A DNA stretch of 32,000 bases, taken from the NCBI GenBank assembly GCA_963662715.1, contig OY759724.1:330001-362000 (forward strand), in the 5' to 3' direction. Below the pieces are notes generated by a model that worked only from the letters and a program-made list of their open reading frames with translations, made no database searches and had not been told where the DNA came from. Below, one piece after another: positions 146 to 20,400 of this stretch. The stretch is from Candidatus Omnitrophota bacterium. Lineage in GTDB: Bacteria; Omnitrophota; Gorgyraeia; Zapsychrales; JANLHA01. How positions within the stretch are numbered: the stretch's first letter is position 1; the number at the start of each line of letters is the position of its first letter. Both the position numbers and the translations under genes were made by a program.

Positions 146-1105
146 TTAGCCATAAACATGATTTGATATATCTTCTTCCTTCTTCTGAATGGCGGCAATG
201 GTGTGTTTCGCCTCAAACGCCTCTTTTGACGCGGGGCCAGCTAAGATTTCAATAGCGCAGGCAATATCATATTGCTCCTTAAGCTTTTCATGTGCCCAAA
301 AAGTGCTCTTAAAATATAGATCATACTTGCAAAGTGTATCCGCCAAGGGTCGAATCCCCCGTACATCTCCTATGGACGCCAATGCTCGCGCTGTAATTCC
401 GCACAGGTCTGATGCTTCAGTGGGAACAATCCGGCTCGTAGAACCATCAGCTTGAGGGAATTCCTGCCGTGGATAAATGAATGATGTGAAGTGCTCGATA
501 AGAACGATAAGGATATCCTCCGCTTGCGGGCTAGCCATCTCTCCAAGGGCGATGACAGCTTCTTTAACCCCTGTCTCAATATTCGATAAACGACAATGTC
601 CTCTGTATCCATACACCATTTCGTGGACACCGAAAGCTTTTTCTTCGAGAAAGCGTATTATCGTTGGAATACAGCGGAGATCGCGAATATGGCCAAATGC
701 TTTAAATATGCAAGATTGGGCAAGCGCGCTGCACTGTGTCACCTGGGCCATCATACACTCCACATCATGCGGCGAGCCCTTCCCTGAAAGTGATTTTTGT
801 ATTGATGCAACAAGTGAATCATAGACTTCATATGACATTTTACCTCTTTTGGAATCAAAACGATCTAGTGTCCTAATCAATGCCAGGACAATCCGCGGGT
901 CATCCATAGCAGCTAAAGCTGTCGCTGCGTCACAAATAACCTGCCAATTAGGACAAGACAAAGCTCTTAACAAACAGCCCGTTCGTTTTTTTAAAGCCCA
1001 CATATGGACGTCGGCACAGTCCGTTGTGGACAATTGCACCCTCCGAATTGTTTTTATGCAAAACCAGACAAAAAACGCACAAATTAAAATTTCGAAAATG
1101 ATCAT
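146..1105 (-). CDS. HEAT-repeat protein with N-terminal membrane anchor (function unknown)
   Basis: 319-aa ORF with ATG at 1103-1105 and a TAA stop. The N-terminus MIIFEILICAFFVWFCI is hydrophobic. Several ~30-aa units look like HEAT/PBS-lyase repeats (NWQVICDAATALAAMDDPRIVLALIRTLD, VKEAVIALGEMASPQAEDILIVLIEH, ITARALASIGDVRGIRPLADTL). Pattern recognition only. Confidence 0.5.
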   Translation of the reverse strand: MIIFEILICAFFVWFCIKTIRRVQLSTTDCADVHMWALKKRTGCLLRALSCPNWQVICDAATALAAMDDPRIVLALIRTLDRFDSKRGKMSYEVYDSLVASIQKSLSGKGSPHDVECMMAQVTQCSALAQSCIFKAFGHIRDLRCIPTIIRFLEEKAFGVHEMVYGYRGHCRLSNIETGVKEAVIALGEMASPQAEDILIVLIEHFTSFIYPRQEFPQADGSTSRIVPTEASDLCGITARALASIGDVRGIRPLADTLCKYDLYFKSTFWAHEKLKEQYDIACAIEILAGPASKEAFEAKHTIAAIQKKEEDISNHVYG

Positions 1106-1345: not shown

Positions 1346-1933
1346 CTAAAAAGTGGTCCAGTTTTCTCCGAGCATTACAGAAATAATGACACCGGGCAAA
1401 CCATCATCAATCTCTGGATTGACTGGAGTTTCACTCTTTCCTAACTTTACAATCTTTCCATCTGGATAAACAACTTTCCCTTTACCTCTCAGATAGACAT
1501 AGCCTACGCCCTCTAAAAGAACAAAGGTCAGCCTATCTCCCTTTCCTCCTTCACCAATGACAGTAGGCAGGCCTTCTCCACCCAATCCTCCACCCAATCG
1601 AACTTCACCCGCAAAGCGATGAATACTTTTATTTCCCAATAATAATGGCTTCGCGTCCAAAGACTCGAAACCATCCCTTGGCATTTCTAAACTGAAGATT
1701 AAAGCCTTCCCTCCCAACTTAGATGATATTGTCCCCGCACACGGAGGCCCCTCTTGGGCGTATATCCCTTTAATCACCAGCCGGTCTCCCGCTCCCTGTT
1801 CCAGAATAGAAGATGCAACATAATTTTCTTCCGCTACAATTTGTTCATTGGAAAGGGTTTGTTCTGCGATTGCAAATGGATGCAATGAGACAACTGCAAT
1901 AAAAACAGCCAGTATAAAAAAAGTTTTTTTCAT
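1346..1933 (-). CDS. Secreted hypothetical protein (signal peptide, Gly-rich centre)
   Basis: 195-aa ORF with ATG at 1931-1933. It is the only called CDS in the window ending in TAG. The N-terminus MKKTFFILAVFIAVVSLHPFAIAEQ is a classical Sec signal. There is a Gly-rich stretch, RLGGGLGGEGLPTVIGEGGKGD. No family recognised. Confidence 0.5.
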   Translation of the reverse strand: MKKTFFILAVFIAVVSLHPFAIAEQTLSNEQIVAEENYVASSILEQGAGDRLVIKGIYAQEGPPCAGTISSKLGGKALIFSLEMPRDGFESLDAKPLLLGNKSIHRFAGEVRLGGGLGGEGLPTVIGEGGKGDRLTFVLLEGVGYVYLRGKGKVVYPDGKIVKLGKSETPVNPEIDDGLPGVIISVMLGENWTTF

Positions 1934-2140
1934 TGTGCCTTCTTTTTCTTTTTAATTCGGGTTACGGTATGTGTCTAGGAATTCGTGCAATTACCTTATC
2001 AGGAATGGTCTCTTCAAAGGAGTAAGACATTGGCTCCCGCACATCCCCTCTTGAGAAACGTCCTGTTTGGTTAAGAAAACATAAATAATCTATGAGTGCA
2101 AAAATCATTAATATAATAATTCTTAGATATTAAAAAATCG

Positions 2141-3274
2141 TTATACCCGATCATGGCTTAAAGAATCATGAAAGTCCCGCAGAGTTTTAAATTTTTTGCA
2201 TATATTAGAATTGAATAATTTTTCATGATGAGCAACAAAGTCCTTATTGGAAATGTTGGGGTCAATGATGTTTATGATTTTTTTCTTATTTGAAGAACTT
2301 TGCCTAATCAAATTATTTAGCTCATTGTCAGAATTCATGAAGCTTTTCCCTACCAAAAACACTTCCTCCGCTTCTTCAAGTAAAGAATATAATTTTTTTA
2401 AGTGTTTGCGGAAGATGTCATATTTTCGATAAGTATATTTTTTTAAGTAATACGGCAAAATTAATGGAAAAGGTGTTTGTGCCTTTTTATCATTGAGTTT
2501 TTTCTGAAACATTTCAGAAGAAACGCCCGGAGACAGCAAATAAACGATTTTTTGGCCATAGCATGTGGGGTCTGTGAACCAGTTAAATGACCCGTGAATT
2601 TTTAGGAGTGTTATGCCATTCTTAGTCCCGACATCATCCGGGAGTACAATATCTGTATAGCCCAAACCATCAAAAGAATTAAAATTTAATAAAGATAGGC
2701 GATATAGTGTAATGTCACATATCTCATCATAGTTAAAGCTGACAACGGCATCGCCTTGTTGAAGCTCCTTAAACACAGACGAATGATAAGCACAATATCC
2801 ACTTTTTATAGAGCGATAACACCATTCATATATTGCCCTCTGAATAAAAGTCATCAGGTTTCTGGGGTTCCCTTCAATCATCAAATGCGGCTTTTCAATA
2901 AAATATTGAAATATTATTTTGGTAAGAGAAATATCTTCGGCGGAGGTTAAGTATTCTTTCAAGATAGGGTCGGTTTCTGCTAAAACTTCGAGACTGTTGA
3001 TAATTTTGCACCGATTTTCTAGGGAGGGGAAAACGACTTCTGGTTCGACAACTCGTGCGATATGCTCTACAGCACAGAGTAGTGTGTAAAATTTCTCTAT
3101 ATCGGTGGTTGTTTCTGTTCGTTGAATTAACTCAGTATAGGCAATGCGGACATTGTCAAGATTGCCGTAATTAAACAGGGTATAAAAATCTTTAAGTAAT
3201 GGCGGCTTAAAAGAGGGATTGATTGTTGAGGCCCCATAAGTGGCCCCTGCTCCGATAATGATAATCTTTCGCAT
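2141..3274 (-). CDS. Stand-alone SIR2-like (SIR2_2-type) protein, putative NADase effector
   Basis: 377-aa ORF with ATG at 3272-3274 and a TAA stop. It has the ordered SIR2 signatures: IIIIGAGATYGAS near the N-terminus, VVSFNYDEICD (NYD at 2726-2734), LLKIHGSFNWF (HG at 2591-2596) and a late VFLVGKSFMNSDNEL. It lies 69 nt downstream of the cyclase-like gene on the same strand. Confidence 0.7.
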   Translation of the reverse strand: MRKIIIIGAGATYGASTINPSFKPPLLKDFYTLFNYGNLDNVRIAYTELIQRTETTTDIEKFYTLLCAVEHIARVVEPEVVFPSLENRCKIINSLEVLAETDPILKEYLTSAEDISLTKIIFQYFIEKPHLMIEGNPRNLMTFIQRAIYEWCYRSIKSGYCAYHSSVFKELQQGDAVVSFNYDEICDITLYRLSLLNFNSFDGLGYTDIVLPDDVGTKNGITLLKIHGSFNWFTDPTCYGQKIVYLLSPGVSSEMFQKKLNDKKAQTPFPLILPYYLKKYTYRKYDIFRKHLKKLYSLLEEAEEVFLVGKSFMNSDNELNNLIRQSSSNKKKIINIIDPNISNKDFVAHHEKLFNSNICKKFKTLRDFHDSLSHDRV

Positions 3275-3343
3275 GTTTAATAATTTTTAGTTTTCTCCAT
3301 AAGAAATCCCTAAAACACTCACTTGGCGTTAAAATTCTAAACA

Positions 3344-4291
3344 TTAGTTTGTCACAACATTACGTTCATTTTTGCTTAAAAAATCAAGAGTTCTTAAATA
3401 TTTATTCTTTATCCTTTCTTCAGTTTGGTTTCTTTGCATAGACAAAAGAGCCTTACGGCAAGGTTTTTGCCCTTCTGTCGAGGGGCTATTCCCAATTATA
3501 AATGCAGGTAAGTTAATATAATCTGCCTCACTTTTAACTGTATATTTTTTAAGTGGAATTGGATAATACGCATAATTTAAACGTTCATCAGCAGGCAAAC
3601 CAAGTTCACCCAATCTTTTAACGGCTGTTTCAGTTAACATAAAACCAATCCAATCTTGCAATTCGCTAAACATATTAGCTTCATTTAGGGCTGCACCAAA
3701 GTACAAGCCACTTTCGTCGTCGGCGTAAAACTCTCCAAAGGACATGCTGCCTCGAACAGGAATCTTCTTTTTAATAAGTGACACAAAGAAATAACGGATA
3801 AATGAGTCTATTGCTCGATAGGCCAAATCAGTATCATCAATAGTGTAAATGATAAAAGAATCCGAGAATGTTATCTTTTTGAGTAAATGGCTATCAAAAG
3901 AATCTTTCTTAAAATGGTCAATGCTGTCCGCATACACTTCAAATACTTTTGTCCAATATGATGTGTTAATCAAATCTTTGATGCCTAATAAATCTAAATA
4001 CGCAACCCAACGATTGATATTAACGTAAGATTTCAGAGCAACTCCTTCTAGGCCTTTTTTGCGCTTAGGGACAGACTCCCTTTTCATCCATAAATCAAAC
4101 TCCTCGCTTGTTAACCCCATCCATTCTGCAATACTTTTCCCCATCCCATCTAAACCTTGTTGATACGCCAAGCGAAATGCTCCCCGGGCTTCGTCTTCAT
4201 TCTTAAAATGCCCATTCTTTTGCCAGAATTTTGCTGTGCTAACACCCCATCCACCGATTTCGATATTTTGTTTCATTCCACGCTGGTTCAT
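3344..4291 (-). CDS. Palm-domain nucleotide-cyclase-like protein (class III cyclase / GGDEF superfamily-like), with an N-terminal ~90-aa extra domain
   Basis: 315-aa ORF with ATG at 4289-4291 (alternative ATG at 4274-4276) and a TAA stop. The motif order fits a class III cyclase palm: VAYLDLLGIKDL (Asp at 3992-3994), KITFSDSFIIYT (3854-3868), IPVRGSMSFGEFY, then YFGAALNEANMFSELQ and IGFMLTE. The N-terminal part has an HTH-like stretch, KSIAEWMGLTSEEFDLWM. The coding call is solid; the fold assignment is by eye only. Confidence 0.5.
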   Translation of the reverse strand: MNQRGMKQNIEIGGWGVSTAKFWQKNGHFKNEDEARGAFRLAYQQGLDGMGKSIAEWMGLTSEEFDLWMKRESVPKRKKGLEGVALKSYVNINRWVAYLDLLGIKDLINTSYWTKVFEVYADSIDHFKKDSFDSHLLKKITFSDSFIIYTIDDTDLAYRAIDSFIRYFFVSLIKKKIPVRGSMSFGEFYADDESGLYFGAALNEANMFSELQDWIGFMLTETAVKRLGELGLPADERLNYAYYPIPLKKYTVKSEADYINLPAFIIGNSPSTEGQKPCRKALLSMQRNQTEERIKNKYLRTLDFLSKNERNVVTN

Positions 4292-4431
4292 ATAGAAGGC
4301 CCGTAAATAGATTCACTTCCTCATTTTAGTTACTAAGAATGTATCTTCTCCAAAAACTCCCCCAAAGTCCTCAAATAGTGACCCCATCGGTCAGCCATAG
4401 GTTTTATAAGATGAGTTTTCATAGTAGACTG

Positions 4432-4460
4432 ATTATACGTGAGATGGGTGGATAAATCAA
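4432..4460 (-). promoter_or_regulatory. Sigma70-like promoter upstream of the cyclase-like/SIR2 gene pair
   Basis: On the minus strand there is TTGATT (4455-4460), a 17-nt spacer and TATAAT (4432-4437). This sits about 135 nt upstream of the ATG at 4291 and downstream of the SIR2-TPR stop. Confidence 0.5.
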
Positions 4461-4520
4461 TAAGGAGGTCTTTAAGAAAAACAGGCAAATCCACCAATTA
4501 TTCATTTTGAACTTACGGGA

Positions 4521-6560
4521 TTATTCAACAACATTCTTTATATTTTCTGCGCGATCCCAGCATTCTATCGCTTCGCGATTCTTGCCCAAAGCGTAGTAAG
4601 TATTTCCTAAATTCGTAAGCCACATTTTCTCACCAGTCCTATCATCAATATTCCTTACTACCCGTAATGCCTGTTCATAATATTCTATCGCTTCTGTATA
4701 TTTACAAAGATCCTCACAGACAACTCCCAAATTACCAAGCCATGTCCCTTCAGTAGCCATATCGCCAATATCCCTTGCCATTTTTAATGCCTGCTTATAG
4801 CATTCTATAGCTTTATCATTCTCAGCAAGACTATTGTAGACAATCCCTAGACTACCAAGCCATATTGCTTCATTTGCTCTATCGCCAATATCTTTCGCTA
4901 TTTTTAATGCCTGCTCATAGTATTCTATGGCGTCGTGGTACTTGCCCATACTATGGTAGACATTCCCCAAATTACCAAGTATCGCCCCTTCACTTGGTTT
5001 ATTACCAATTTCCCGCATTATCTGTAATGCTTGTTCAAAATACTCTATTGCTTTGATAGACTCGTTAAGGCAATGACAAATTTTCCCCAGATTGCTAAGC
5101 TCTCTTCCTTCATTGACTTTATCACCAATCTTCCTGGATATTTTCAATCCCAGTTCATAATATTCCCTCGCTTTATGAAACTCGTTAAGTTCACAATAGG
5201 CATTTCCTAAATTGCTAAGTATCGCCCCTTCCTCAGGACAATGGCCAATCTTCTGTATTATTCGTAGTCCTCGGACATAATATTCTATAGCTTTGCGATA
5301 TTCACTAAGACCAGAGTAGATAATTCCCAAATTACCAAGACACGACCCTTCTCCGGTCCTATCACCAATATCCCTTGCTATACGTAGTGCACGCTCGTAA
5401 TAGATCATCGCTGACCTCAATTCTGAGATTGATATACAAATTGCTCCTAATATACACATTTTTTCAGCAGGAGATATCCGACTCACCCAACGTGTGATTT
5501 TATTCTTCCAAAGTATCTCCCGCTGGGCTATTTTTTTTTCATTAATTCCATCTAAATAAGACCCCTCACAGTTAACATCATTCCAAAGCCGCGTAATCAA
5601 CTCATTCGTGTTATATCCCAGTCTCACTCCTTCGAAATCTTTCAACGTGTTATGCACTTTATCAAAATGTTCCTCCCCCCTATGATTAACTCCCTGCAAA
5701 CGCTCCGCTGATAATTTTTGAACCCAAGGAGCATCAGTTGTATGCTCCACATAAATCACTCTTTTAGCTTTTACTTTTACGGCTTGTATTTGTGGAACCA
5801 AATCAAAGGCGTCGGAGCAGCTATACCCGAGGATAAGAACGATTTTGTGTCCGCCAGTGGAGAACATCTGGTTGATAACGTGATTTCGTTGTACAGCTAA
5901 CTTCTGACTAGCCACTTGCTTAAGTGTAATCGCAAGGTTCTTTTTATCATGAACACTGCCGTGAACTTTCACCAATTGGATGCCTTTACCATTCCACTCG
6001 ATTCTTTCAAGATCGTCCTCTCTGAAATATAGTGCATACCCAATCCCATCTTTTATCGATTCAAGTGCAAGAGCTTTTTCAATCAATTGGTCAAAATTTG
6101 TTGTCACTACAACCGTTATCTTTTGCTCTTTTAACAATCTAGCCAAAAAAATATGATTGGCGTTAGGCGTGACCGCATTGGGCTTCGGCTCATCTGCGTC
6201 ATAAACTGTGTAGAGCAATTCTGCGTTGCCTCCATCATTCAACTTTTCGACAAATAGTTCAAATGGCATCTTGTGGAATATTTTTCTAATCACTACTTCA
6301 GACATTCCTGTCGCTGCACTAATTTGGGTGATTAATTCCAGCTCTCTTTGGGCAGAACTCTTCTTGCCTTGCGTCATTTGATTGATTTCATTTATTCTTT
6401 CATCAGAAACATCATTCAACCGCAACAACATATACGGAACGAATTGAGCTATTACTGGCAGACCAGAATTAAAAGAAATTCCTGCCCCACAAAAGACAAC
6501 CAGTTCCTTTTTCTTTATTGCCATCGCTATTTCTGTTATGATTCCTTCTGTCTCATTCAT
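4521..6560 (-). CDS. SIR2-domain / TPR-repeat fusion protein (putative sensor-effector NADase)
   Basis: 679-aa ORF with ATG at 6558-6560, preceded by AAGGAA, and a TAA stop. The N-terminal half carries sirtuin-like signatures: VVFCGAGISFNSGLP (GAGIS at 6474-6488), VVTTNFDQLIEKA (6090-6104) and LVKVHGSV (HG at 5958-5963). The C-terminal ~310 aa form eight 40-aa TPR units of the pattern AIEYYEQALKIAKDIGDR..EG..LGNLG.VY. No Walker A/P-loop is seen between the two halves. Confidence 0.8.
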   Translation of the reverse strand: MNETEGIITEIAMAIKKKELVVFCGAGISFNSGLPVIAQFVPYMLLRLNDVSDERINEINQMTQGKKSSAQRELELITQISAATGMSEVVIRKIFHKMPFELFVEKLNDGGNAELLYTVYDADEPKPNAVTPNANHIFLARLLKEQKITVVVTTNFDQLIEKALALESIKDGIGYALYFREDDLERIEWNGKGIQLVKVHGSVHDKKNLAITLKQVASQKLAVQRNHVINQMFSTGGHKIVLILGYSCSDAFDLVPQIQAVKVKAKRVIYVEHTTDAPWVQKLSAERLQGVNHRGEEHFDKVHNTLKDFEGVRLGYNTNELITRLWNDVNCEGSYLDGINEKKIAQREILWKNKITRWVSRISPAEKMCILGAICISISELRSAMIYYERALRIARDIGDRTGEGSCLGNLGIIYSGLSEYRKAIEYYVRGLRIIQKIGHCPEEGAILSNLGNAYCELNEFHKAREYYELGLKISRKIGDKVNEGRELSNLGKICHCLNESIKAIEYFEQALQIMREIGNKPSEGAILGNLGNVYHSMGKYHDAIEYYEQALKIAKDIGDRANEAIWLGSLGIVYNSLAENDKAIECYKQALKMARDIGDMATEGTWLGNLGVVCEDLCKYTEAIEYYEQALRVVRNIDDRTGEKMWLTNLGNTYYALGKNREAIECWDRAENIKNVVE
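4524..5460 (-). repeat. Coding tandem repeat, ~120-nt period (eight TPR units of the SIR2-TPR gene)
   Basis: DNA blocks recur every ~120 nt, for example ccaatatcccttgc..ttttaatgcctgc..tattctat.gc. They correspond to the 40-aa units CLGNLGIIYSGL.., ILSNLGNAYCEL.., ELSNLGKICHCL.., ILGNLGNVYHSM.., WLGSLGIVYNSL.., WLGNLGVVCEDL.. and WLTNLGNTYYAL.. Confidence 0.7.
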
Positions 6561-6777
6561 TTATGCTTTCCTTTTTCTGGTAACATCGAAAACTTTTTCC
6601 GTCTATTCCAAAATTTTTAAACCAGTTACCCAATTTCAACAATCCGTTTTAAGACGCTTTCCGTAGTCCTCCTGTAGCGCGTCCATCGCCCAGCCTATGA
6701 TCCTCTTTTCAAGAAAAAAAATTGTTTGTTTTTATTCAGGCATCACTCATCATATTCTTTTTCATTCTTAGTAGTCT

Positions 6778-6945
6778 TTAAATGTTTGTTCTACTTTTAA
6801 TAAAATTTTCTAAGTCTTTTGGATAAATCCTCCACTTGCCAATCTTTATTGCATTTAACCGTTTTGTCTAGATAAGGTCTCTTATCTAGTCTTCGGTGAC
6901 GCAGAGTTTTTCAACCACTTCTTTAACAGTGAGGTAGTTACGCAT
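6778..6945 (-). pseudogene. Excisionase/AlpA-type HTH (HTH_17-like) gene interrupted by two in-frame TAG codons
   Basis: The minus-strand frame reads MRNYLTVKEVVEKLCVTED*IRDLI*TKRLNAIKIGKWRIYPKDLENFIKSRTNI*. It matches the Xis/MerR-type pattern LTVKE..E.L.V....I..LI....L.A.KIG..WRI...DLE.FI. The in-frame TAGs are at 6886-6888 and 6868-6870, and there are no frameshifts. Confidence 0.6.
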
Positions 6946-7014
6946 GTCTTACATTGAGTTGACCTCGTTTTTTTGACAAATTTATCAAATTACTATTTAT
7001 TCCTATTAAATTTT

Positions 7015-7044
7015 ATTGTATGCTCGTTACTCTTATAAAGTCAA
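7015..7044 (-). promoter_or_regulatory. Sigma70-like promoter upstream of the Xis-like pseudogene, followed by an operator-like palindrome
   Basis: On the minus strand there is TTGACT (7039-7044), an 18-nt spacer and TACAAT (7015-7020). The near-palindrome TTGACAAATTTATCAA (6973-6988) lies between this promoter and the ATG at 6945. Confidence 0.35.
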
Positions 7045-7902
7045 TGGAATTCAAGTACTATATTGTTTTATCTCTTCAAATTCCTGCATGAATTCTCTGA
7101 ACCGTGCCAGTTGCAGACGTTCTTCATCTAGTCGTACTATGCAGTGAGTTTGCGTAGCGATAAGAATCTAAGGCTGACTGGATCATTCTTATTGCTTTTA
7201 AAAGAATCTTTAATCTGTTCGGGGAGAGCTAGTGTTCCGAGAATTCTTGCTATGCATGACTAGTCTTCTCCAGTGTAACCGCAAGTTCTCTAACGACGCT
7301 GTTTATGCCGTGTGCTTCTTTAATCCTCACGTAATATTCTGTTTTCTCAAGGGAAAACTATTCTAGGAGTCTTATGTGGGTTTGATACATATTTCAGACT
7401 CTTTTTTGATTGTATCAATGTGGCCTAAGTCTTCAGAGGGGGGCAGAGACGACAACACTACTTATGATTTTTATTAACGATGTAAAAAAAAATTCAACCC
7501 AATAGGTGCGTGACTGTGTGAAGAAACTTTTTTTGAGGTGCTGGATGAATTCAATCATATCTGATGGAGAAAGGAGTATCTTCCCTCCATCAGAAAATTG
7601 CTTTCCGTTTTGCGAAAAAACGACTTGTGTTACACAAGTACGCTGGTTGCAAAACGGGCACAACTGGGGTTAATCACTTCAGTAGAAACCGCACAGTTCT
7701 GAGCCATAATTACATGCTCTTTAACTTTCCTTAACATCTTAAAATTTACAAAATCACGGGAGGGAATCTATTTCTATTCCACCACATTTCCACCACATAA
7801 AATCGATTCAAATTGAAAAAACGCGAATGTCATGGCTGACCATGGCTTGCAGTAACTTGTAATGTAAATCATTGATTTATATAGAGAAATGATATTTTTG
7901 GC

Positions 7903-7932
7903 ACAAAATAATGGGGTATCTTGCGATACCCC
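7903..7932 (-). terminator. Rho-independent terminator of ssrA
   Basis: Perfect 8-bp stem GGGGTATC / GATACCCC (7913-7920 and 7925-7932) with a 4-nt loop (GCAA on the minus strand). On the minus strand it is followed by ATTATTTTGTGC. It starts 11 nt after the tmRNA 3' end. Confidence 0.7.
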
Positions 7933-7943
7933 AAAACATAAAG

Positions 7944-8333
7944 TGGAGGTGCGGGGAATCGAACCCCGGTCCTTCAGCTGCTTTCCGTAAGCCTCTACAT
8001 GCTTAGTCTGCCGTTTACAATCACCTGAAAATCTCCGGCAAACAGGATATCCTCAGGCTATCCTTCTTAAGTTTCGCCGTGGCCCCGAAGGCCCTGGCCA
8101 CAGCTAGCCTGCTGAATGTCCTCTTAACAGCCCACAGGCCTGACGGTTAAAAGGGCCTCTCTTTTTTATTAAGCGAGGACTGGTTCGCCAGCAAAAATCG
8201 GTTCTACGATTTCGTTGGCTTTAGCGAGAATAGATTCGCCATTTGTGTGTGCCCGGATGATTAACGAGGCCAACCAGGCATCCTCGGCATGCCACTTACA
8301 GTCTCTCAACTGAAGTCGAGACCAATCACCCCC
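7944..8333 (-). ncRNA. ssrA: tmRNA (transfer-messenger RNA)
   Basis: On the minus strand the 5' end GGGGGTG pairs with the 3' end CACCTCC, including a G3:U pair, and is followed by discriminator A. The T-arm is CGGGG-TTCGATT-CCCCG. An internal tag ORF, GCC AAC GAA ... GCT TAA TAA (8219-8166), encodes ANEIVEPIFAGEPVLA plus a double stop. The gene lies directly downstream of smpB. CCA is not encoded. Confidence 0.9.
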
Positions 8334-10425: not shown

Positions 10426-11859
10426 ATGGACCATACTCAAACTCAACTTCTGATCATCGGGGCCGGCCCCGGCGGATATGTCGCTGCCTTTCACGCCGCT
10501 GATTCCGGCCTGAATGTTACTTTAATTGACCGCGAAAAAAATCCCGGAGGCGTTTGCCTCTTCCGCGGCTGCATCCCTTCCAAAGCTTTACTGCATGTGG
10601 CGCGCATCCTTTCCGACGCCAGGGACGCCAAAGCGTTTGGGGTAGAATTCCGCGAACCGGATATTCATCCGGAAATTGTCCGCAAATGGAAGAACAGCGT
10701 CGTTGATAAATTGACCGGGGGGCTGGGGCAGCTGTCCCGGCAGAGAAACATCAACTTTATCCAGGGAGAAGCTGCTTTTCTTGATTCTCAAAATGTCGAA
10801 GTCAAAACAGCTGACGGCACGTTGTCTCAAATCCATTTCGACCATGCTATCATCGCGACCGGGTCTCAGCCTGTCACCCTTCCCTTTGCCCCTGAGTCGC
10901 CGCGGGTCATGGACTCCACGGCGGCTTTGGAATTAGCTGAAATCCCGCCGAGACTTCTTGTTATCGGCGGAGGATATATCGGACTGGAACTGGGGTCGGT
11001 TTATGCCGAACTGGGCAGCACGGTATCTGTCGTAGAAATGACGCCGCAGCTCCTTCCGGGAGTCGATCCGGACTTAAGCATGATCCTGAAAAAAAGGCTC
11101 CGGCTGAAATTCGAGGCCATCAAATGTCATACCCGGGTCACAGGACTGCAGGACACGGGGTCGGCCGTCGAGGTGACTTTCGAAGACGCCAAGGGGCAGA
11201 CAAATTCCGATTCATACGACAAAGTCCTTATCGCCATCGGCCGCAAACCGGACGCCTCCTCCCTGCGGCTGGAAAAAACAAAAGTCCGATTAACAGACCG
11301 CGGGTTTATTCAAATCAATGCCCAGCGCCGGACAGACGACCCCGCTATTTACGCGATCGGGGATGTCGCCGGGAACCCTATGCTGGCGCATAAAGCGTCT
11401 CACGAAGCCCGGGTGGCGGTGGACGCGATCCTCGGGAAGAACACCGCTTTCTCCCCGCAGGCCATCCCGGCCGTGGTCTTTACCGATCCGGAAATTGCCT
11501 GGTGCGGCCTAACGCAAGCCCAGGTGCAGGATCAAGGCCCGGACATCAAAATTCTAAAATTCCCCTGGGCGGCTTCCGGACGGGCTGTCACGTTAAACCG
11601 CACTGACGGGTTGACAAAGATTATGACAGACGCCCGGACAGGCCGCATCCTTGGTGTGGCTCTCGTTGGGACCGGGGTCGGAGAAATGATCGCGGAAGGG
11701 GTTCTGGCTGTCGAGATGGGAGCGGTTGCCGAAGATCTTATGCTGAGCATCCATCCCCATCCGACGCTATCGGAAACGATGATGGAAGCCGCCGAAAGTT
11801 TTTTCGGGCAGAGCATGCATATTTACAAGCCGCCCCGGAAAAAGCAGGACCTCATTTAA
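10426..11859 (+). CDS. lpdA: Dihydrolipoyl dehydrogenase (E3 component)
   Basis: 477 aa. It has the FAD motif IIGAGPGGYVAA, the redox-disulfide motif GGVCLFRGCIPSKALL, the NAD motif VIGGGYIGLELG and the C-terminal HPHPTLSE interface motif. Confidence 0.9.
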   Translation: MDHTQTQLLIIGAGPGGYVAAFHAADSGLNVTLIDREKNPGGVCLFRGCIPSKALLHVARILSDARDAKAFGVEFREPDIHPEIVRKWKNSVVDKLTGGLGQLSRQRNINFIQGEAAFLDSQNVEVKTADGTLSQIHFDHAIIATGSQPVTLPFAPESPRVMDSTAALELAEIPPRLLVIGGGYIGLELGSVYAELGSTVSVVEMTPQLLPGVDPDLSMILKKRLRLKFEAIKCHTRVTGLQDTGSAVEVTFEDAKGQTNSDSYDKVLIAIGRKPDASSLRLEKTKVRLTDRGFIQINAQRRTDDPAIYAIGDVAGNPMLAHKASHEARVAVDAILGKNTAFSPQAIPAVVFTDPEIAWCGLTQAQVQDQGPDIKILKFPWAASGRAVTLNRTDGLTKIMTDARTGRILGVALVGTGVGEMIAEGVLAVEMGAVAEDLMLSIHPHPTLSETMMEAAESFFGQSMHIYKPPRKKQDLI

Positions 11860-12857
11860 TTTTCTTCTATCCGGGTTAATAATTGCTTCAATTCCGGGCC
11901 GAAAATTTTTGAAAACTCGATAGAACCCAGCTGGTTCAGATGCTGGGAATTATAGAAATACTTTTCCTGCCGCGCCATTTCTGCCGAAGAGTAATCCATA
12001 AAAACAATGTCCCGGCCGTCACTCAGTTTTCTATAGATGGCTCTCACTTCATCCAAATTGACAACAAACTCGTTGAACTGATAATAAACCGGGGCATAAA
12101 CAAAAAACAGCCGGATACGTTTCTGCCGGCACAGCTGAACAAGCTCATTCAGAGCGGCCTTCCCCTCCTCGGTCATTTGCCCTTTAAGGCCTTGCGGATA
12201 AAGCCTTTTAACGGTTTTGACATCTTCCTCCTTATTCCAGTCTATGTTCACCGGGCAATAACCTTTGTAACAGTCAACCGTATCTTCCCGGCCGGTCAAC
12301 CCCTGGACCGCATCGACCGTAAAGTCATGACTTAACAGGGCAAAGCTGTATAAAGGGAAATACCTGGCTAAGATAAAATGTTTCGAAATCCCGGAAAGGG
12401 TTTGATAAATCTCTTTTTCGTTCAAATAAGGGATAAACTGTCCCGGATTATACGCCCGGGGCTTACGAAGGGTATTGCGTCCCACCACCTGAACAATAGC
12501 TTCCGGCGGGCGGTTGTATTTCAGGTAGACTTTTAACCGGGCCACCTGCAGGGCCAGGGAATTTCCCAGCAGGGCGATATTATAGACATCTTTATTCAGG
12601 TCCTCTTCCAGCAGAGAAACGTCCATGCCGGCTTGCGCCCGGGAAGCTCCAGTTATCAGGATGTCGGCATTAATTTCTCCCCGGACAATACGGTTCCATT
12701 CCCCGAAATCGCCGCTTCTCCTCGCGTAAAACCCTTCCATCAAATAAGCCTGGACAGCCAGACTGAGGATGACAAATATAACGGGAAAAGCGATCATGTC
12801 TCTTGCATTCTGATTCATGGCGTTAAAATTGGAAATAAATAAATTCGATCCCTTCAA
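11856..12857 (-). CDS. MBOAT-partner protein, DltD/AlgJ-type SGNH-like (tentative), membrane-anchored
   Basis: 333-aa ORF directly downstream of the MBOAT gene. It has one N-terminal TM segment (IAFPVIFVILSLAVQAYL) and a C-terminal YFYNSQHLNQLGSIEFSKIF reminiscent of DltD/DUF1574-type partners. The annotated start overlaps the MBOAT gene by 35 nt; an in-frame ATG at 12816-12818 (MNQNARD) lies 4 nt after the MBOAT stop. The stop codon shares bases with the lpdA stop (convergent TTAA). Confidence 0.45.
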   Translation of the reverse strand: MKGSNLFISNFNAMNQNARDMIAFPVIFVILSLAVQAYLMEGFYARRSGDFGEWNRIVRGEINADILITGASRAQAGMDVSLLEEDLNKDVYNIALLGNSLALQVARLKVYLKYNRPPEAIVQVVGRNTLRKPRAYNPGQFIPYLNEKEIYQTLSGISKHFILARYFPLYSFALLSHDFTVDAVQGLTGREDTVDCYKGYCPVNIDWNKEEDVKTVKRLYPQGLKGQMTEEGKAALNELVQLCRQKRIRLFFVYAPVYYQFNEFVVNLDEVRAIYRKLSDGRDIVFMDYSSAEMARQEKYFYNSQHLNQLGSIEFSKIFGPELKQLLTRIEEN

Positions 12858-14256
12858 ATTTCCCCAGAAAAATAATGCTGAAAAGTACCGCGTAATAAAA
12901 AATCCAGCGTGCGAACTTAGGCATCCTTAACGTCAGGTCTCTCAGCCGCCAGCGGCTCTGCAGCAAATGCACGATAATGAGCAGAGCTATCAAGGCCAAA
13001 GATACGGTAAAATCAAAAGTTTTATACGGGAAAGCGTCGTTGCCCCCCGGGCTGAACATATTTATTATAAGAGTTTTCACATCACGCAGCGACTGGGCTC
13101 TAAAAAATATCCATGAAAAAAGCACCAGGTGGTACGTGATGGCGATCCGAAGCATTTTGTACAGGGCCGGGACTCTCTCCAAATTCAGGAAAGACACCGC
13201 CCGGCGGCGCCAGCCTTCCGTCCAGACAGAAAAAAGCATATAAAATCCGTGAAGCGCCCCCCAGACAACAAACGTCCAGTTCGCGCCGTGCCAAAGACCG
13301 CTGATAACAAAAACGAAAATAAGATTAAGGTACCACCGCTGTACCGGGACGCGGTTGCCGCCGAGAGGAATGTACAAATAGTCCCGGAACCAGGTCGACA
13401 AAGAAATATGCCAGCGCCTCCAGAACTCGGCAATGGATACGGCAAAATAAGGGCGCCGGAAATTCTCCATGATTTCAAAGCCCATGATCCTGGCGGCTCC
13501 GATAGCAATATCCGAATAGCCGGAGAAATCGCAATAAATTTGAAAAGCAAAAAACGTCGTGGCGATGTAAACCGTCGCGCCATGCCATTGCGCGGGATGC
13601 CCGTAAACAAAATTCACAAAAAAGGCCAAGCGGTCCGCGATGACGATCTTTTTAAAGAATCCCCATAACATAAGTTTCAGGCCGTCGCACATCCTGGGAT
13701 AGTCGAAATCATGTTTTTTAAAAAACTGCGGCAACAAGTGGCCGGCCCGCTCAATCGGGCCTGCGACCAGCTGCGGGAAGAAAGATACGTATAAGGCAAA
13801 AACCCCTAAATGCCTTTGAGGCTCCAGTCTTTTACGGTAGACATCAATCGTATAGCTTAGCGTCTGAAACGTATAAAAGGATATCCCTAAAGGAAGCAGG
13901 ACATTCAGATGAGGGAGATACGCGGACAAACCGAGGGTCTTGAACAAGGCGTTAAAACTGGACGAGAAGAAATTAAAATATTTAAAAACCGCCAGAATGC
14001 CCAAATTCGTCATAAGGCTCAGGACAAGAAACATCCGGCGTTTCACAGGGTTTTCCGTCCGCCCCATCTGCCATCCGGCAGTGTAATCCACCAAGGTTGA
14101 AACCACCAGTAAAAGAACATACGGGATGTTCCAGAACATATAAAACACGTAACTCGCCAGAAGAAGCCAGGCCCAGCGGAAACGGAAAGGGAAAAGGAAA
14201 TAAAGGGTAACAACGACAGGAAAAAATATTAAAAATTCTAGAGAATTAAAAAGCAT
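12823..14256 (-). CDS. MBOAT family O-acyltransferase (AlgI/DltB-like)
   Basis: 477 aa. It starts MLFNSLEFLIFFPVVVTLYF, typical of AlgI/DltB, and is polytopic. The conserved region FWRRWHISLSTWFRDYLYIPLGGNR and a later SGLWHG contain the MBOAT histidines. Confidence 0.85.
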   Translation of the reverse strand: MLFNSLEFLIFFPVVVTLYFLFPFRFRWAWLLLASYVFYMFWNIPYVLLLVVSTLVDYTAGWQMGRTENPVKRRMFLVLSLMTNLGILAVFKYFNFFSSSFNALFKTLGLSAYLPHLNVLLPLGISFYTFQTLSYTIDVYRKRLEPQRHLGVFALYVSFFPQLVAGPIERAGHLLPQFFKKHDFDYPRMCDGLKLMLWGFFKKIVIADRLAFFVNFVYGHPAQWHGATVYIATTFFAFQIYCDFSGYSDIAIGAARIMGFEIMENFRRPYFAVSIAEFWRRWHISLSTWFRDYLYIPLGGNRVPVQRWYLNLIFVFVISGLWHGANWTFVVWGALHGFYMLFSVWTEGWRRRAVSFLNLERVPALYKMLRIAITYHLVLFSWIFFRAQSLRDVKTLIINMFSPGGNDAFPYKTFDFTVSLALIALLIIVHLLQSRWRLRDLTLRMPKFARWIFYYAVLFSIIFLGKFEGIEFIYFQF

Positions 14257-14424: not shown

Positions 14425-17400
14425 TTAATTATAATTCAGCATGCTGAGCTTATCATGTTCGTCATCGAAAAAGAACTGAATATCCGACTCCGCCGGTTCC
14501 TGCTGAGGCTTCCGGTCTGCGCCTTTTTCCGCCTCTGTGCCCCGGCCCCGGGTTGTCCCTCGGGCCGGAACCGCATCCTCGGCACTCATGCCCAGCAGCA
14601 TCGGCAGGTTGGGAATCGGCGTAATGTTGATAATAACCGGCAAGAACCCTTCTATATTCATATTCTGAATCGGCTGTTGCTGAACAGGTAAAGGAACACC
14701 GCTTCCGTCCCGTCTGATCTGCAGGTTCAAAAGCGCCGGATTAAGATCGATACCACCAAGCGGCGAAGAAGTCGCCGGCGCGGCTCCTATATTCGCTGCC
14801 AGCCGTTGAACGGTATTGATAACCTGGCCCACGCCGCCCTTACTGTTCTTTTCTGTTCTCATAAGTTTGCTGAGGTCACGTTTCGCCTGTTTGGTCGAGA
14901 TGCTGCCATCAGCGACAGAGACCAGAAGCTCCCTTGTCCCTTTATTTTTCAGATTAAATTTCGTCATAGCCTTGTCAACGGCTTCGATCGGAGAAGAAAC
15001 GGCCGCGCTGGCGAGTTCAATGACTTCCGCTGTTGCCAACAGGTTTTGCACGGCAGATTCTTCATTTACCCTGTCAAGGACTTCCGTAATGTCCCGGTCG
15101 ACCCAATCTCCAGGTAATGTCACAGCAACATCAATCCCGGCCTCCTGCCATTGAAAAGCGACACCGGTTTCATCGGCCCTTACCCCGTCATAACGCAAAA
15201 CCAAGTTTGCGCCTTCGACAAAAAAGTAGGTCCTCTTCCAAGGGAGGTCCTCCCCTTCATCAAATTCCGGCAAATTGGTTTTTACGGTCAGCTGTTCAGA
15301 CAGCTTAAAGGGCACGGACAAATCGGTCAAACGTGTCTCCAGCTGACTCATGGTGTTGATCACAGATTCTAAGCGCGTCGCCTCTTCGATCGGGATGTCC
15401 CGGGCTAATTCAATCTGCAGCTCTTTGGCCGGGAGAATCTCTCCGACCTGCCGTAGAACATCCGCGACCTGATTCCGGACTGTCTCTAGCCTGGCGCGGT
15501 CCTTTTCCACCTCTATTTCAACCTGGGCCAAAAGCTGTTCGGCCTGGGTTAACAAGTCAGCCACCTTTTCTTTTTCATTCGCGGCAAACTGAATAGGAGA
15601 AGAGGCCCCCAACGACATGAAGTCAATTAACGGGAACCGTTCCGGACGCCCGGCATCAAGCATGAGCAGCTGCAAATCCCGGTTCTCATCCTCCGTCACC
15701 CGGACAGCCTCATTAAACACCCGGGCGGCCATAACTAATATTCTCTCAGCCAGAGCCCTGTCAACACCGTCAATTTCCATTAATTTATTTTCAGCTTCTG
15801 TTCTCCGGTCAGCCTTCTCTAATTCTATCGCCTCCTGGATGGCCTGGTAAGCATCGGCCGTCACAAGGTTATAGCCTAAGGCCAAACTGGCCGGAAGCAG
15901 CCTGAACATGGCCTCTCCGACAGGGTAAGCTCCGTCCATCAGCTTGATGCTGAGGATATGGGCGGCTTTGGCCAAAGGAGGATTCTGTTCAATAAAGACG
16001 ATCTGATTGGCCAATAAAGCCCGCATAGCGGCATGAATCCAGCCGTTCTGGGCCCCGTTGACCTGCTTATCAATATCCACGATTTGATTAATAAGCTGTA
16101 CGTTCTCTTCGGCTAACCCAATCGTTGAGAGTATCGGGGAAGACACGCCTAAATTCGTATAATCCAAGAACTCGATATACTTCGCCTCAACCCCGGTAAG
16201 AGCTACGGCAAAAGGCCCGTCTGTAGGAGTCCAGGTTAACAAGACATCCTGAAGAGCAAAAGGATTAGCATACTCAAAATCCCCTTGTATTTCCCGGGAT
16301 ACCAGCACAGTTGCATCATCCGGAGCCCTTAATTCCAGACGTGTTGTACTATCAGGCTCATGGACATTAACATACAAAACATTTCCGTCATGCTTGAATA
16401 AGATCCTTCTTGAAGCGCCCTGATTATTGTCAAGGTTCCGTCCCTCGCTGACCAGAGGCTCTCCCAGCACGGCAAAATTCCCCAGCTGGCTTGCTGCTTC
16501 ATAATTCTCAACTTCGTTATATTTCGTTCTTGCCCGCATCACGGCCGCCTGCCATTCCCCTGCCGAAGCAGCCGTCTCCAAGGCCTCGGCCAGGACAAAC
16601 GGACTCTCTGACATCCAGTCGCCGGAAAGGGTTAATTCTTTTATATCCGTCTTGTCGTCCCTGGCGCGTAAAACAAGCCGGGTCGTCCCTTGTGTATGGT
16701 CCCGGTGAGCATAAAGGATACGTCCGTCATGCCCGAACAGGGCTCTCAAAGACGGGCCGTCATTTTCTGCCCAATTCTGTCCTTCCCGGACCATTGTTTT
16801 AACCGGAGAAGCAGCCAACAACGACTCTCCGATATAGGGGTCATGCTGAGCATGCAGGTCTCTGCCTGCCTCCATATTAGGGATTCCATTCTCGTCTGTC
16901 CTCAGCAAGGCAGCTCCCAGACCGGTTCCAGGCCCGATATAAAGAATGCGGGCATTGTCGATTCTTTGCCCGGACAACTCATATAATGCTGTGGCCCCGG
17001 CAAAAGCATCGTTCATCCACACCACGTTATAAGGTTCTCCTAATAAACCCTGCAACGTGCTGGCAGGGTTCACACCGAAAAATTGCGGGCGGTTGGGCCA
17101 GCTTTCTTGAGCGATAGCGCCATCAGCCTCTTTTTTCCCCGGATGCCCGACCCCGATTTCAAAGGAAACCTCGTATTGTTCAGTCTCTAATTCATTCCGT
17201 AAAGTATTAATAAGAGGAAGCAGTGCGCTGTAATATTCTTCCGGTTGAACTTGTGCGATATCACGGTCTAATACAAACCGCTGCATCCCTCCTACAAATT
17301 GCACAAAATTTCCGTTTTCATCAAACTGGATCCCCTGCATCTTGGCAGAGGTCCCGCCCACATCAACACCGATCACAACCTTGTTCCGTCTAAGGTCTTG

Positions 17401-20400
17401 ATCAACCAGCAATGCTGCTCCTAATATCCCTGCTTCTTCCGCAACCATTTGATTTTCAGCTGAAAGGATCGGCAGTATCGTAACGCCGGTTCCCAACACG
17501 CTTCGGATCTTCTGTTCCAGGATATTGCGGATAAAAGGATTATTGCTAATAGCCCCGCCGATCTCAATAACGTTAATGCCTTTCCACTCATCTTCGATGG
17601 CTCTTAAAGCTTCTCCATCCTGACTCCGCAAGGCCCCTTCCATCAGCAGAGACGCAAACTGCGCATAAACACCCCCGACAAATTCCAGCACCTGAGTGAT
17701 AACATCTGCGGCCTCGGAATCGGGATAAGTTTGCAAGACCCAGCCCATAAACCTGGTATCCAGATTCCCCTGATATTCGGCCAACAGGTCCGTAAACAGG
17801 TCCTTGTTTTCCTTAAGGAGCTGTTCATTCACCTGGGCGAACATCCGGTTAATCGCCGTAGTCGAAGAAAGGTTCTCCGTTGTTAATCTTTCTGTTGTAA
17901 AAGACACCAGCACTTCACGCCCGTCCCGCAGGGAAATGGCTACAGGGATGGCTTCTAACGGCGAAGAACCCAAGTTATTTTTTAAAGCGACAATATCTTT
18001 CACGGAATAGGGCTTCATGAAAATATCCGTAAAAAGGCCGCCTTTTAAACCTGTCGCGGCATCAACCTGCTGAAGCTCCTCCAGATTCGGGGCAAAACCC
18101 GTCGTGAGGATGATGGGGAGATCTCTTACCGCCCGGATCTCTCTGGCAAGTTGTTCGCCGGTCATCTGAGGCATGACGAAATCTGTCACCACCAGATCAA
18201 TATCCGGATTCTCGTTAAACACTCTCAAGCCTTCTTCTCCGTTATCGGCGCGAATGACTTCCGCTTCGCCGAAAACCGCACCGAAGAGCTGCGCAGCCAC
18301 ATCTCCGACCATCTCTTCATCGTCCACAACAAGAATTTTCTTGATGGGCGTCGAAACCACGGCAGCAGTGGTGGTGGTAATTTTATCTTTTAAAGCGGTT
18401 AACTGCTCAAACTCATAAGGTTTATCCAGGACTTCATCAAATAATCCGCCCTTTAAACCGGTCGCTTCATCCACGGCCGTTAATGTGTCGTCTATCGTCC
18501 CTGACAACAAGACAACCGGGACATTGTTTCCTGCGGCCCTCAACTCACGGGTGAACTGATCTCCGGTCATAACAGGCATTTGCAAATCCGTTACAACCAG
18601 GTCAAAATCCCCGGACTCCCGGAAGGTCTGAAGGGCTTCCTGCCCGTTGTCTGCGGTAACGACTTCCACGTCCCCGAACACGTCTTTCAAATCTTCGCTC
18701 ACCAGGAGCAAAATGGATTTTGAATCATCGACCAGGAGGATCTTCTGAATCGGAGAAGCCACCGGGGCCGCTCTCAAGGAAGACTCTACCTGCGAGATAA
18801 ACGCCTGCAAGTCTTCTGAATATTTGTTCGCCTGAATGATTCCCGACAATATTTCACTGACTTCTGTCTCTGTCGCCTGCGCGGCGGCAACATAAGCCCC
18901 TTCTATCTCAAAGAATACTTCGGCCACGATTTCCCCTGTCCTCCCATCATATAATTTATGAGAAATCTGGTTGGCCCCAGCAACCTCTTCCCCGATAACC
19001 ATTACAGGGTTATTATCCCGCATAACCAATATGGTACGGGCAAAGGATTGCGGATGATAAGTCCGGATGATACCCGTCTGCCCCTGGGCCATGGTCAACA
19101 ATTCCAGCCCCGTTGTATCGATGACCGGGGATGAAGCAGGCGGCGTTGTCCTTACGAGCTCTAAGGCTCTAGCCGCATCCTCTTCCGTAATTCCAATCAA
19201 ATCATTACGGAAAGAAACCCCGGCGCTTCTTTCTGCATCTTCCAAGCTCCCTGCCGTAAAATTGAACTTCCGCAGATCCTCCAGCCGAAAAGTAAAATAC
19301 TGCGATATTTGGGCCGCTGTCGGAACCCGCCCTTGACTTGCTTCTATATCCATCCATTGCCGAAACAACTCAATATCATCCCTATCCACCTCATATTCGC
19401 CCGTTACCATTCTCTCTATGGCAGCCGGCAACCCCGTCATCCATCCCCGATATCTCGGATGACTCAAGATATACTTCTCTACCCCTACGGGCAGAAACGT
19501 TATGTCTTTTTCCGGGTCGGAGGAAAAATGCTCCCGGATATTCGTGGAGGATGTCCCGAACAAATTAATATGTCCTATCGGCCTTATAAATCCTCTTGCC
19601 ATGTATTCCTTCATTTGAGCCACTTCCACCGGCATAGGCAGACTTTCAAATAATTCCCTGAAGTTGAAGGCCAACATCATGTCGATATTATTTCTTTGAA
19701 GATGGTCGGCCAACTCCTCTTTCATCCGGTCCATCTTTAAGACCGTATCCGGCTGAGGATGATCCCCGTCCATTTTAGGAGTCCTGTACCCATCGGTATC
19801 CATGTCGCTTGACGGGGCATAAACATGCATATGGTCCCCGCCGACCGCTGTATAGACCCACGTTGTCTTTCCTGTTCTGCCCCCGTTGATTTCAATCAGT
19901 TTCTTGTACTTCGTTTCGCCATCCGCCTCTGAACCGTTCAAAACTTTTGACAAGACAAGAAGTCCGTCAAAAAGATCCACCCATTCCTGCGCCATTTCAT
20001 CGCGCTCCTCAAAAGTCGGGTTCAGCCCCTTCTTCTGCTTGCGGTAATCAAAGGCATGGTTGACGACACCAACCTGGGAAATTTTCAATTGCGCCATGGC
20101 CCGCAAAACCGGTTCGAACTGGCCGAAATGCAGAGGATTCAACGCTGAGGCATAAACACCGACGATCGTATCCCCGGTATCTGTTTCCTGCCCCGTAAAC
20201 TCCGCGTCCTGTTCACTCCAGCGCACCTGCTGCAATTGCATCTCCCCGTTCATCATATGGACGCCGATTTCCCATAAAGATTCCTTCACCTTTCGTGTCC
20301 ATTCACCGGCCAATTGCTCGTTTCGACCCGGTTCCTGACGCAGACTCCGCCTCACAAGATTATCAAAGACCTGTTCCACGTCCACCCGGATCTCTTTGTT

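Follow-up and report, generated by a model that had tools for sequence, protein, structure and literature searches.

Do genes for two SIR2-type proteins and a nucleotidyl cyclase-like protein that lie side by side in a bacterial genome work as one defense system, or does each of them belong to a module of its own? The question is raised by genes A, B, and C, three consecutive genes in a 32,000-nucleotide (nt) stretch from a Candidatus Omnitrophota bacterium (GenBank assembly GCA_963662715.1, contig OY759724.1, positions 330,001-362,000 of the forward strand), which is referred to here as the window and whose own numbering is used throughout. In an initial annotation, made from the sequence alone, the three genes were put forward as a candidate single system directed at nicotinamide adenine dinucleotide (NAD), in which a tetratricopeptide repeat (TPR) array senses the invader, the cyclase-like protein relays a nucleotide signal, and both SIR2 proteins execute. 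The evidence presented here favors a different answer: the cluster is probably a small defense island beside a transfer-messenger RNA (tmRNA) gene, made up of three separately inherited modules and not of one three-component system.

Gene calling and base composition reproduced the outline of the cluster. Gene A (4521..6560, 679 amino acids), gene B (3344..4291, 315 amino acids), and gene C (2141..3274, 377 amino acids) are consecutive open reading frames (ORFs) on the minus strand, with the coordinates first assigned to them. The spacer between B and C is 69 nt, as had been stated, and that between A and B is 229 nt. The stretch that holds the three genes is A+T-rich, with a G+C content of 0.374 at 1950-7940 vs. 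0.489 at 8400-32000.

Distribution of the three genes and boundaries of the B cassette

Homologues of A, B, and C were not syntenic. When the N-terminal 378 residues of A, its SIR2 half, were used as query, at least 156 clusters from many sources were retrieved, mostly proteins of 550-660 amino acids in which a SIR2_2 domain is combined with TPRs. The lists from this word-indexed search are incomplete, as A itself was missed despite being present, identical in sequence, among the proteins searched, and the counts are thus lower bounds. The best annotation among these relatives was 'TPR repeat protein/NAD-dependent SIR2 family protein deacetylase'. B-like and C-like genes were absent from the two genomic contexts of A homologues that we examined. 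Given these two contexts and the large number of SIR2_2-TPR clusters, A appears, judged from its sequence, to belong to an architecture that is widespread and stands alone. The C family is small and comprises 14 clusters. A C homologue with 62% identity adjoins AbiEii and has no A or B nearby, and a second one, with 35% identity, likewise stands alone. Hidden Markov models (HMMs) of the SIR2 domain of A and of the C family were run on about 65 further loci with a relative of B and detected neither A-like nor C-like proteins there. Neither A nor C gave a match when compared with plasmids.

The clearest boundary in the cluster is that of B. At the locus labelled L073, a B protein 94.6% identical to that of the window is encoded among entirely different neighbors. 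Comparison of the window with L073 and L075 by blastn showed that the sole stretch common to them consists of B together with 111 nt upstream of the gene (3349..4402, minus strand). Nucleotide identity to the window is 92.5% and stops at the B stop codon, and A lies outside the aligned block. Because the DNA homology is limited to 3349-4402 and ends at the stop codon, B seems, at the level of nucleotide sequence, to be a self-contained cassette, with the cargo behind it having been exchanged. It is these cassette boundaries, together with the failure to find relatives of A, B, and C in company with each other, that lead us to regard the modules as separate.

The same observations bear directly on the joint action of the three genes as first proposed, with the TPR array as sensor, the cyclase-like protein as relay, and both SIR2 proteins as executors. 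Such a system would be in keeping with three adjacent genes on the same strand of one A+T-rich island with no terminator-like site between them. However, the three families were not found together at any other locus examined, the edge of the B cassette at 4402 leaves out A, and the architecture of A is widespread by itself. We therefore consider a joint system very improbable, and the claim that the three genes make up one system is not supported.

The proposal that the cluster is divided into two transcription units, SIR2-TPR alone and the cyclase-like gene plus SIR2, gained no support. The promoter-like site from which it was drawn (4432..4460, minus strand) exists, has 10 of 12 consensus matches, and is situated 30 nt outside the B cassette. 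The region contains 20 promoter-like sites vs. 19.8 +/- 5.4 in shuffled sequence, and since this equals the level expected by chance, the site is no evidence for two units. A weaker promoter-like site is located at 4352-4323, inside the B cassette.

The SIR2-TPR protein A

The description of A as a SIR2 domain fused to eight TPR units was borne out by Pfam. SIR2_2 (PF13289) matched residues 150-256 with a score of 46.7 bits (expectation value (E) 4.4e-12), which passes the cutoff of 24.5, and TPR_12 matched with E 8.9e-59. With the SIR2-type matches from Pfam and PADLOC extending over residues ~5-256, the SIR2 NADase-type domain is placed at approximately residues 15-260 (5781..6518, minus strand), where the NAD-binding GAG25-27, N155 in the motif TTNFD, and H200 in the motif HGS are found. 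The TPR array occupies the C-terminal 309 residues (371-679; 4524..5450, minus strand) and consists of eight 40-residue units, the last shortened to 29, assigned to Pfam TPR families. The DNA shows the repeat as well, with five 150-nt copies, 65-71% identical, that follow each other in a 120-nt register. No nucleoside triphosphatase (NTPase) domain was identified in A, and a Walker A motif was found in neither A nor C. Matches of A to PADLOC and NCBIfam were restricted to the domain level and included the SIR2 parts of ThsA, Aga_SIR2, PDC-S65, and Dsr1, as well as generic TPR models.

By analogy with DSR1/DSR2, A may be a single-protein sensor-effector, in which the C-terminal TPR array would bind a phage-derived protein. 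Binding would then release or assemble the N-terminal SIR2 domain, so that NAD+ is hydrolyzed and the infection aborted. A literature search for 'SIR2-TPR' returned no paper and no characterized member of this architecture.

The stand-alone SIR2 protein C

C was initially described as a stand-alone protein of the SIR2_2 type. Its assignment as a stand-alone SIR2 protein was supported by structure search and by the PADLOC models named 'SIR2', which match C with E values from 4.4e-9 (best) to 1e-3. No Pfam SIR2 model was reached, the only Pfam match being a sub-threshold one to AbiH (E 4e-4). The AlphaFold (AF2) model of C, based on the family alignment, has a predicted local distance difference test score (pLDDT) of 84.3 and a predicted template modelling score (pTM) of 0.83. 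Foldseek ranked the SIR2 subunit of SIR2-HerA/Nezha first (E 4.7e-8), followed by DSR2, KomC, classical sirtuins, and ThsA. GAG8-10, N181 (in NYD), D183, H227 (in HGS), and G228 are invariant in the 14-member family. C is thus predicted to be a SIR2 protein of NADase type that stands alone, of the kind filed by PADLOC under 'SIR2', and in the cluster it would constitute an independent module. The GAG, N-(F/Y)-D, and HG signatures are present in both SIR2 proteins, in agreement with the initial annotation, and on their primary structure A and C would therefore qualify as defense-type SIR2 NADases, for which GAG, Asn, and His are diagnostic.

The cyclase-like protein B and its family

B consists of an N-terminal helical domain followed by a class III cyclase-like palm. 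No match to B was obtained in Pfam, NCBIfam, or PADLOC, the HMMs of Guanylate_cyc (PF00211) and GGDEF giving none at E<=1, and its sole match in PHROGs was to phrog_23933, a family of unknown function. A cyclase-like palm had been proposed from the order of motifs in the sequence, and it was at the level of fold that this proposal could be confirmed. An AF2 model built from 25 homologues has a pLDDT of 80.6, with most of the core (residues ~90-310) above 90, and all 50 of the 50 top matches in a Foldseek search against the PDB were class III adenylyl or guanylyl cyclase domains, with a best E of 1.7e-6 and template modelling (TM) scores normalized to the target of up to 0.65. Based on model confidence, conservation, and these fold matches, the palm, or cyclase-homology-like domain, is placed at residues ~90-310 (3362..4024, minus strand).

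Relatives of B are numerous. When 1.84 billion representatives were searched with a profile of the family, there were 6,928 matches at E<=1e-3, 2,586 at E<=1e-10, and 231 at E<=1e-30, nearly all of them stand-alone proteins of 210-270 amino acids that do not have the N-terminal domain and are here called the short form. Among 107 diverse members of the family, D100, D144, and G181 are invariant, and R180, P178, F142, S143, F146, G199, A205, E210, W214, and G216 are conserved in at least 90%. D100 ends the first strand (residues 91-101), while D144 is located within a hairpin (137-150) between strands 2 and 3. Judged by their position, these two residues presumably correspond to the metal-binding Asp pair of class III cyclases. 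R180 and G181 form an Arg-x-Gly element that opens the next long strand of the palm and, again by position, presumably corresponds to the phosphate-binding element. Conservation in helix 200-211, where class III cyclases would be expected to have their transition-state Asn/Arg pair, is restricted to G199, A205, and E210, and no conserved Asn or Arg is seen in the alignments as read by eye.

None of the 107 members matched a Pfam or PADLOC model above noise (Guanylate_cyc, 0 of 107), and two profiles of the family found nothing at E<=10 among PDB sequences. A Cas10_Id match in one of the 107 members (E 0.007) was marginal and was taken as noise. Judged from its modelled fold, B thus appears to be a member of a large class III cyclase-like family that is outside the coverage of Pfam, NCBIfam, and PADLOC. 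With its Asp pair kept, B may be a metal-dependent nucleotidyl cyclase or transferase, carried on a cassette of its own with its own upstream region. A phage or plasmid origin of B was considered and set aside, since the family is nearly absent from collections of mobile replicons, where it was found on two viral contigs, in one phage record, and on two plasmids.

Genomic contexts of B relatives

Short-form relatives of B were located in 54 species-representative genomes from many phyla. Clustering by BLAST identified no recurrent neighbor, and in a Pfam census of 150 proteins encoded within two genes of short-form B in 49 genomes, no family occurred more than three times. Housekeeping genes are among the neighbors, for example that of glyceraldehyde-3-phosphate dehydrogenase (GAPDH). 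At three loci, the short-form gene lies inside or beside a type I restriction-modification (R-M) operon. At one of these (L023, 7892-11970), its neighbors include a DUF7380/DUF4209 protein and a GMT-wHTH protein.

The long form, which like B of the window has an extra N-terminal domain of ~80 residues, was found in five distinct arrangements. In the first, hsdR-hsdM-hsdS is followed by B and by an nSTAND_NTPase5 gene of ~1,270 amino acids, after which mostly comes a DUF4062/PDC-S60-like gene. In the second (L006), B is followed by a split Dsr1, consisting of a 303-amino acid SIR2 gene and a 1,075-amino acid C-terminal gene. The third (L073) has Avs3, B, and then genes of ~370, ~185, and 389 amino acids, the last of which is SIR2-like. 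A Schlafen-like helicase, an unknown gene, HEPN_AbiV, B, and an unknown 529-amino acid gene make up the fourth arrangement, and the fifth is that of the window itself (A, B, C). The long-form relatives are thus found in a defense context of type I R-M, nSTAND NTPase, split Dsr1, Avs3, HEPN_AbiV, and Schlafen-like helicase genes.

Two of these loci contain further features. The two genes of the split Dsr1 in L006 (6704-10839, plus strand) overlap by 4 nt and are located directly 3' of the long-form B homologue. Their products match the Dsr1 models of PADLOC with E 2e-74 (303-amino acid SIR2 part) and E 7.5e-113 (1,075-amino acid part). In L073, the three genes after B (10956-13804, plus strand) are tightly packed. 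The ~370- and ~185-amino acid products have no match in Pfam or PADLOC, and the 389-amino acid SIR2-like protein matches PDLC04087 (E 1.8e-15). This trio may represent an undescribed SIR2-containing module.

Several observations weigh against the interpretation of the cluster as three separately inherited modules. Long-form B is always found 5' of, on the same strand as, and near a variable defense-type gene. Moreover, a SIR2 gene is present within the next three genes in three of the five long-form arrangements (C in the window, the split Dsr1 in L006, and the 389-amino acid protein in L073). In this small and post hoc sample, the tally exceeds the expectation for random placement in defense islands, which hints at a functional link. 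There is no terminator-like site between A, B, and C, and their co-transcription is possible. The genomic contexts of the A and C homologues are also a thin sample, with two looked at for each, and the NADase activity, the sensing of phage, the chemistry of B, and the defense role are all properties that we infer. B might conceivably be connected to the SIR2 proteins through signalling or regulation.

One such link would be two-part signalling. The SIR2 NADase C would here be under the control of a nucleotide messenger that B produces, be it in response to infection or, in the manner of Panoptes, constitutively, and A would be an unrelated neighbor. B has the predicted fold of a cyclase, and across the 107 members there is little or no variation at the Asp pair and the Arg that characterize class III active sites. 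B and C lie 69 nt apart on the same strand, again with no terminator-like site between them, and a SIR2-type gene is located 3' of long-form B in three of five architectures, all of which would agree with such signalling. On the other hand, C homologues occur without B, and Dsr1 is filed as a single protein in both PADLOC and NCBIfam. In L073, a nearly identical B is followed by unrelated genes, and with the homology breaking off exactly at the B stop codon, each partner would have had to acquire a receptor anew. Of the known nucleotide-sensing domains (cyclic nucleotide monophosphate (cNMP)-binding, CARF, SAVED, or SLOG), none was identified in A or C, the great majority of the B family is stand-alone with no conserved neighbor, and the positions of the transition-state Asn and Arg are apparently not conserved in helix 200-211, according to alignments read by eye. 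Taken together, the evidence makes two-part signalling unlikely.

Long-form B could also be seen as a new family of defense front ends, in which a class III cyclase-like enzyme, fused to a small domain that stems from mobile elements, would make or sense a nucleotide signal and thereby switch on or guard the NAD-depleting effector encoded immediately downstream. The effectors would then be C in the window, the split Dsr1 in L006, and the SIR2-containing trio in L073, and they have no known receptor domain. We find this doubtful too.

The N-terminal domain of B

A regulatory link would involve the N-terminal domain of B (residues 1-78; 4058..4291, minus strand), which was modelled with a pLDDT of 57-74. 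An HMM of this domain matched stand-alone small proteins of 71-191 amino acids at 15 loci, and a length of 84-105 amino acids is given for the stand-alone form in mobile-element contexts. In two of the annotated contexts, the neighbors are a DUF3987/PriCT_1 protein and a VapE/Prim-Pol protein, respectively, and from their sequences and surroundings the stand-alone proteins seem to be small proteins of mobile elements that make up a family without a name. In integrative elements, the slot adjacent to the primase or helicase gene is the usual place of small DNA-binding regulators.

Long-form B might thus be a regulator, its N-terminal domain binding DNA and its palm detecting or synthesizing a nucleotide by which the transcription of the genes behind it is adjusted, much as regulators do that precede a range of defense systems. 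The position of B as the first gene before a variable cargo, the conservation of the 111 nt upstream of it, and the occurrence of the stand-alone domain beside primase/helicase genes of mobile elements are what a regulator would lead one to expect. Furthermore, the same domain is found in no partner protein, which speaks against a homotypic adaptor. Yet the domain matches no helix-turn-helix (HTH) or other model in Pfam, its model confidence is low, and DNA binding is deduced from position and from a helix pattern judged by eye. Most members of the B family, in addition, do not have the domain at all. On balance, a regulatory role seems improbable to us, and we retain the interpretation of B as an independent cassette.

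Two other roles of the N-terminal domain were considered and rejected. A homotypic adaptor role was discarded because the HMM of the domain matches no partner protein. The segment GLDGMGKS resembles a Walker A motif (P-loop), and this was dismissed as the Lys and Ser positions vary among homologues.

The genomic island and its surroundings

The tmRNA gene (7941..8333, minus strand) was identified by both ARAGORN and Rfam (173 bits), and the A+T-rich island starts at its 3' end. The 3' end of tmRNA genes is a classic insertion site of islands. An SmpB-sized ORF adjoins the gene on the side away from the island, and the flank at 8.4-32 kb is of housekeeping character, including a Mem_trans transporter, a pyridine-nucleotide disulphide oxidoreductase, LptF/LptG, and a ComF-like protein. 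No intact gene is present between the tmRNA gene and A. Three-frame translation showed a decayed frame here (6778..6939, minus strand) that reads 'NYLTVKEVVEKLCVTED*IRDLI*TKRLNAIKIGKWRIYPKDLENFIKSRTNI*', with two in-frame stops. Its resemblance to excisionase/HTH_17 proteins was seen by eye and is unscored, and the frame is probably what is left of the mobile element with which the island arrived. Based on the adjacent tmRNA gene, the low G+C content, the decayed excisionase-like frame, and the housekeeping flanks beyond the tmRNA gene, the setting is a genomic island at a tmRNA insertion site. A second copy of the tmRNA 3' end was not found elsewhere in the window, the borders of the island are without att-like repeats, and no integrase survives in the window.

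This setting is relevant to a further alternative, according to which the cluster has no part in defense, the SIR2 proteins being protein deacylases or ADP-ribosyltransferases and B an ordinary signalling cyclase. SIR2 domains also act as deacylases, and housekeeping genes such as that of GAPDH are among the neighbors of short-form B, both of which count in its favor. A and C, however, match SIR2_2 or defense-type models, while CobB of NCBIfam reaches 28.7 bits vs. a cutoff of 320, and the best structural matches of C are defense SIR2 proteins. The location in an island at a tmRNA gene and the occurrence of long-form B relatives among R-M, Avs3, Dsr1, and AbiV genes point in the same direction. 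A function outside defense is thus highly unlikely, and a defense island of separate modules remains the preferred interpretation.

A few other features of the window were recorded. The tmRNA tag called by ARAGORN has 23 residues (GESILAKANEIVEPIFAGEPVLA, followed by a double stop). tmRNA tags usually have 10-12 residues, and the resume codon may be miscalled. A 2,906-amino acid ORF (14425-23145, minus strand) has two response-regulator receiver domains as its sole Pfam matches, the best stretch being residues 1469-1584. Beyond C, a 319-amino acid protein with HEAT_PBS/HEAT_2 repeats (146-1105, minus strand) and a 195-amino acid protein with a signal peptide-like N-terminus and no Pfam match (1346-1933, minus strand) are encoded. 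The G+C content here is intermediate, 0.44, and its membership of the island is ambiguous.

Implications

As a whole, the cluster would be a typical defense island that reveals no new immune mechanism by itself. What is new is the B family, whereas the effector types of A and C are known. SIR2-TPR appears to be a large stand-alone architecture and a compact analogue of DSR1/DSR2 that would be easy to test. B exposes thousands of proteins with a predicted cyclase fold and an intact Asp pair that are covered by neither Pfam, NCBIfam, nor PADLOC, and one branch of the family is repeatedly situated directly 5' of defense effectors. If long-form B does signal to SIR2 enzymes, this would be a new messenger pathway in bacterial immunity. 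If it does not, B still belongs to an unnamed enzyme family worth cataloguing.

Comparison with known systems

The initial annotation placed the cluster outside the named SIR2 and cyclic-nucleotide systems. This is consistent with our searches of PADLOC, Pfam, NCBIfam, and PHROGs, in which matches were at the domain level only, and the domains reported as lacking (TIR, SLOG, HerA, pAgo, STAND, CARF, SAVED, and cNMP-binding) were indeed not detected by Pfam or PADLOC. In the literature searched, class III cyclase-like proteins and SIR2 were nowhere connected in a defense setting. The cluster differs from CBASS, type III CRISPR, and Panoptes in that the three proteins have no CD-NTase, Cas10/mCpol, SAVED, CARF, or other receptor-domain match in Pfam or PADLOC. 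It differs from Thoeris in that A, B, and C contain neither TIR nor SLOG, the ThsA model covering only the SIR2 part of A, and from Avs/STAND-SIR2 proteins in that A has no NTPase domain or Walker A motif.

In Pycsar, as here, a cyclase-fold protein is paired with a NAD-depleting or membrane effector in a defense setting, but B matches no PADLOC cyclase model, and A and C have no cNMP-binding domain. Panoptes, with its mCpol, a minimal Cas10-type palm cyclase, shares with the present cluster a small stand-alone palm nucleotide synthase that adjoins an effector gene. In contrast to Panoptes, B has no Pfam match, its structural neighbors are class III cyclases and not Cas10, and the partners are SIR2 proteins instead of 2TM-beta or CARF-TM effectors. 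With the class III cyclases themselves, B shares the predicted fold, the order of elements, D100, D144, and R180/G181. It differs from them in having no match to their sequence models, in the apparent lack of conservation of the Asn/Arg pair expected in the helix after strand 5 (as read from the alignments), and in possessing two extra C-terminal helices and, in the long-form branch, the N-terminal domain.

As for the SIR2 proteins, C is in its predicted fold most similar to the SIR2 subunit of SIR2-HerA (Nezha), with 8uae_F as its best match (E 4.7e-8, TM score ~0.5) and a similar length. Sequence identity of C is 13-17%, however, the island contains no HerA or P-loop protein, and the neighbor of C is B. 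The models of DSR1/DSR2 match A weakly, with E 3.9e-5 for Dsr1 of PADLOC, over residues 149-249 only, and 21.1 bits vs. a cutoff of 1400 in NCBIfam. A is also shorter (679 vs. ~1,000-1,250 amino acids), and its repeats are canonical 40-residue TPRs. Nevertheless, A resembles DSR1/DSR2 in its overall layout. In both, a SIR2 domain that has the catalytic Asn and His stands at the N-terminus, helical repeats come directly after it at the C-terminus, and there is no NTPase.

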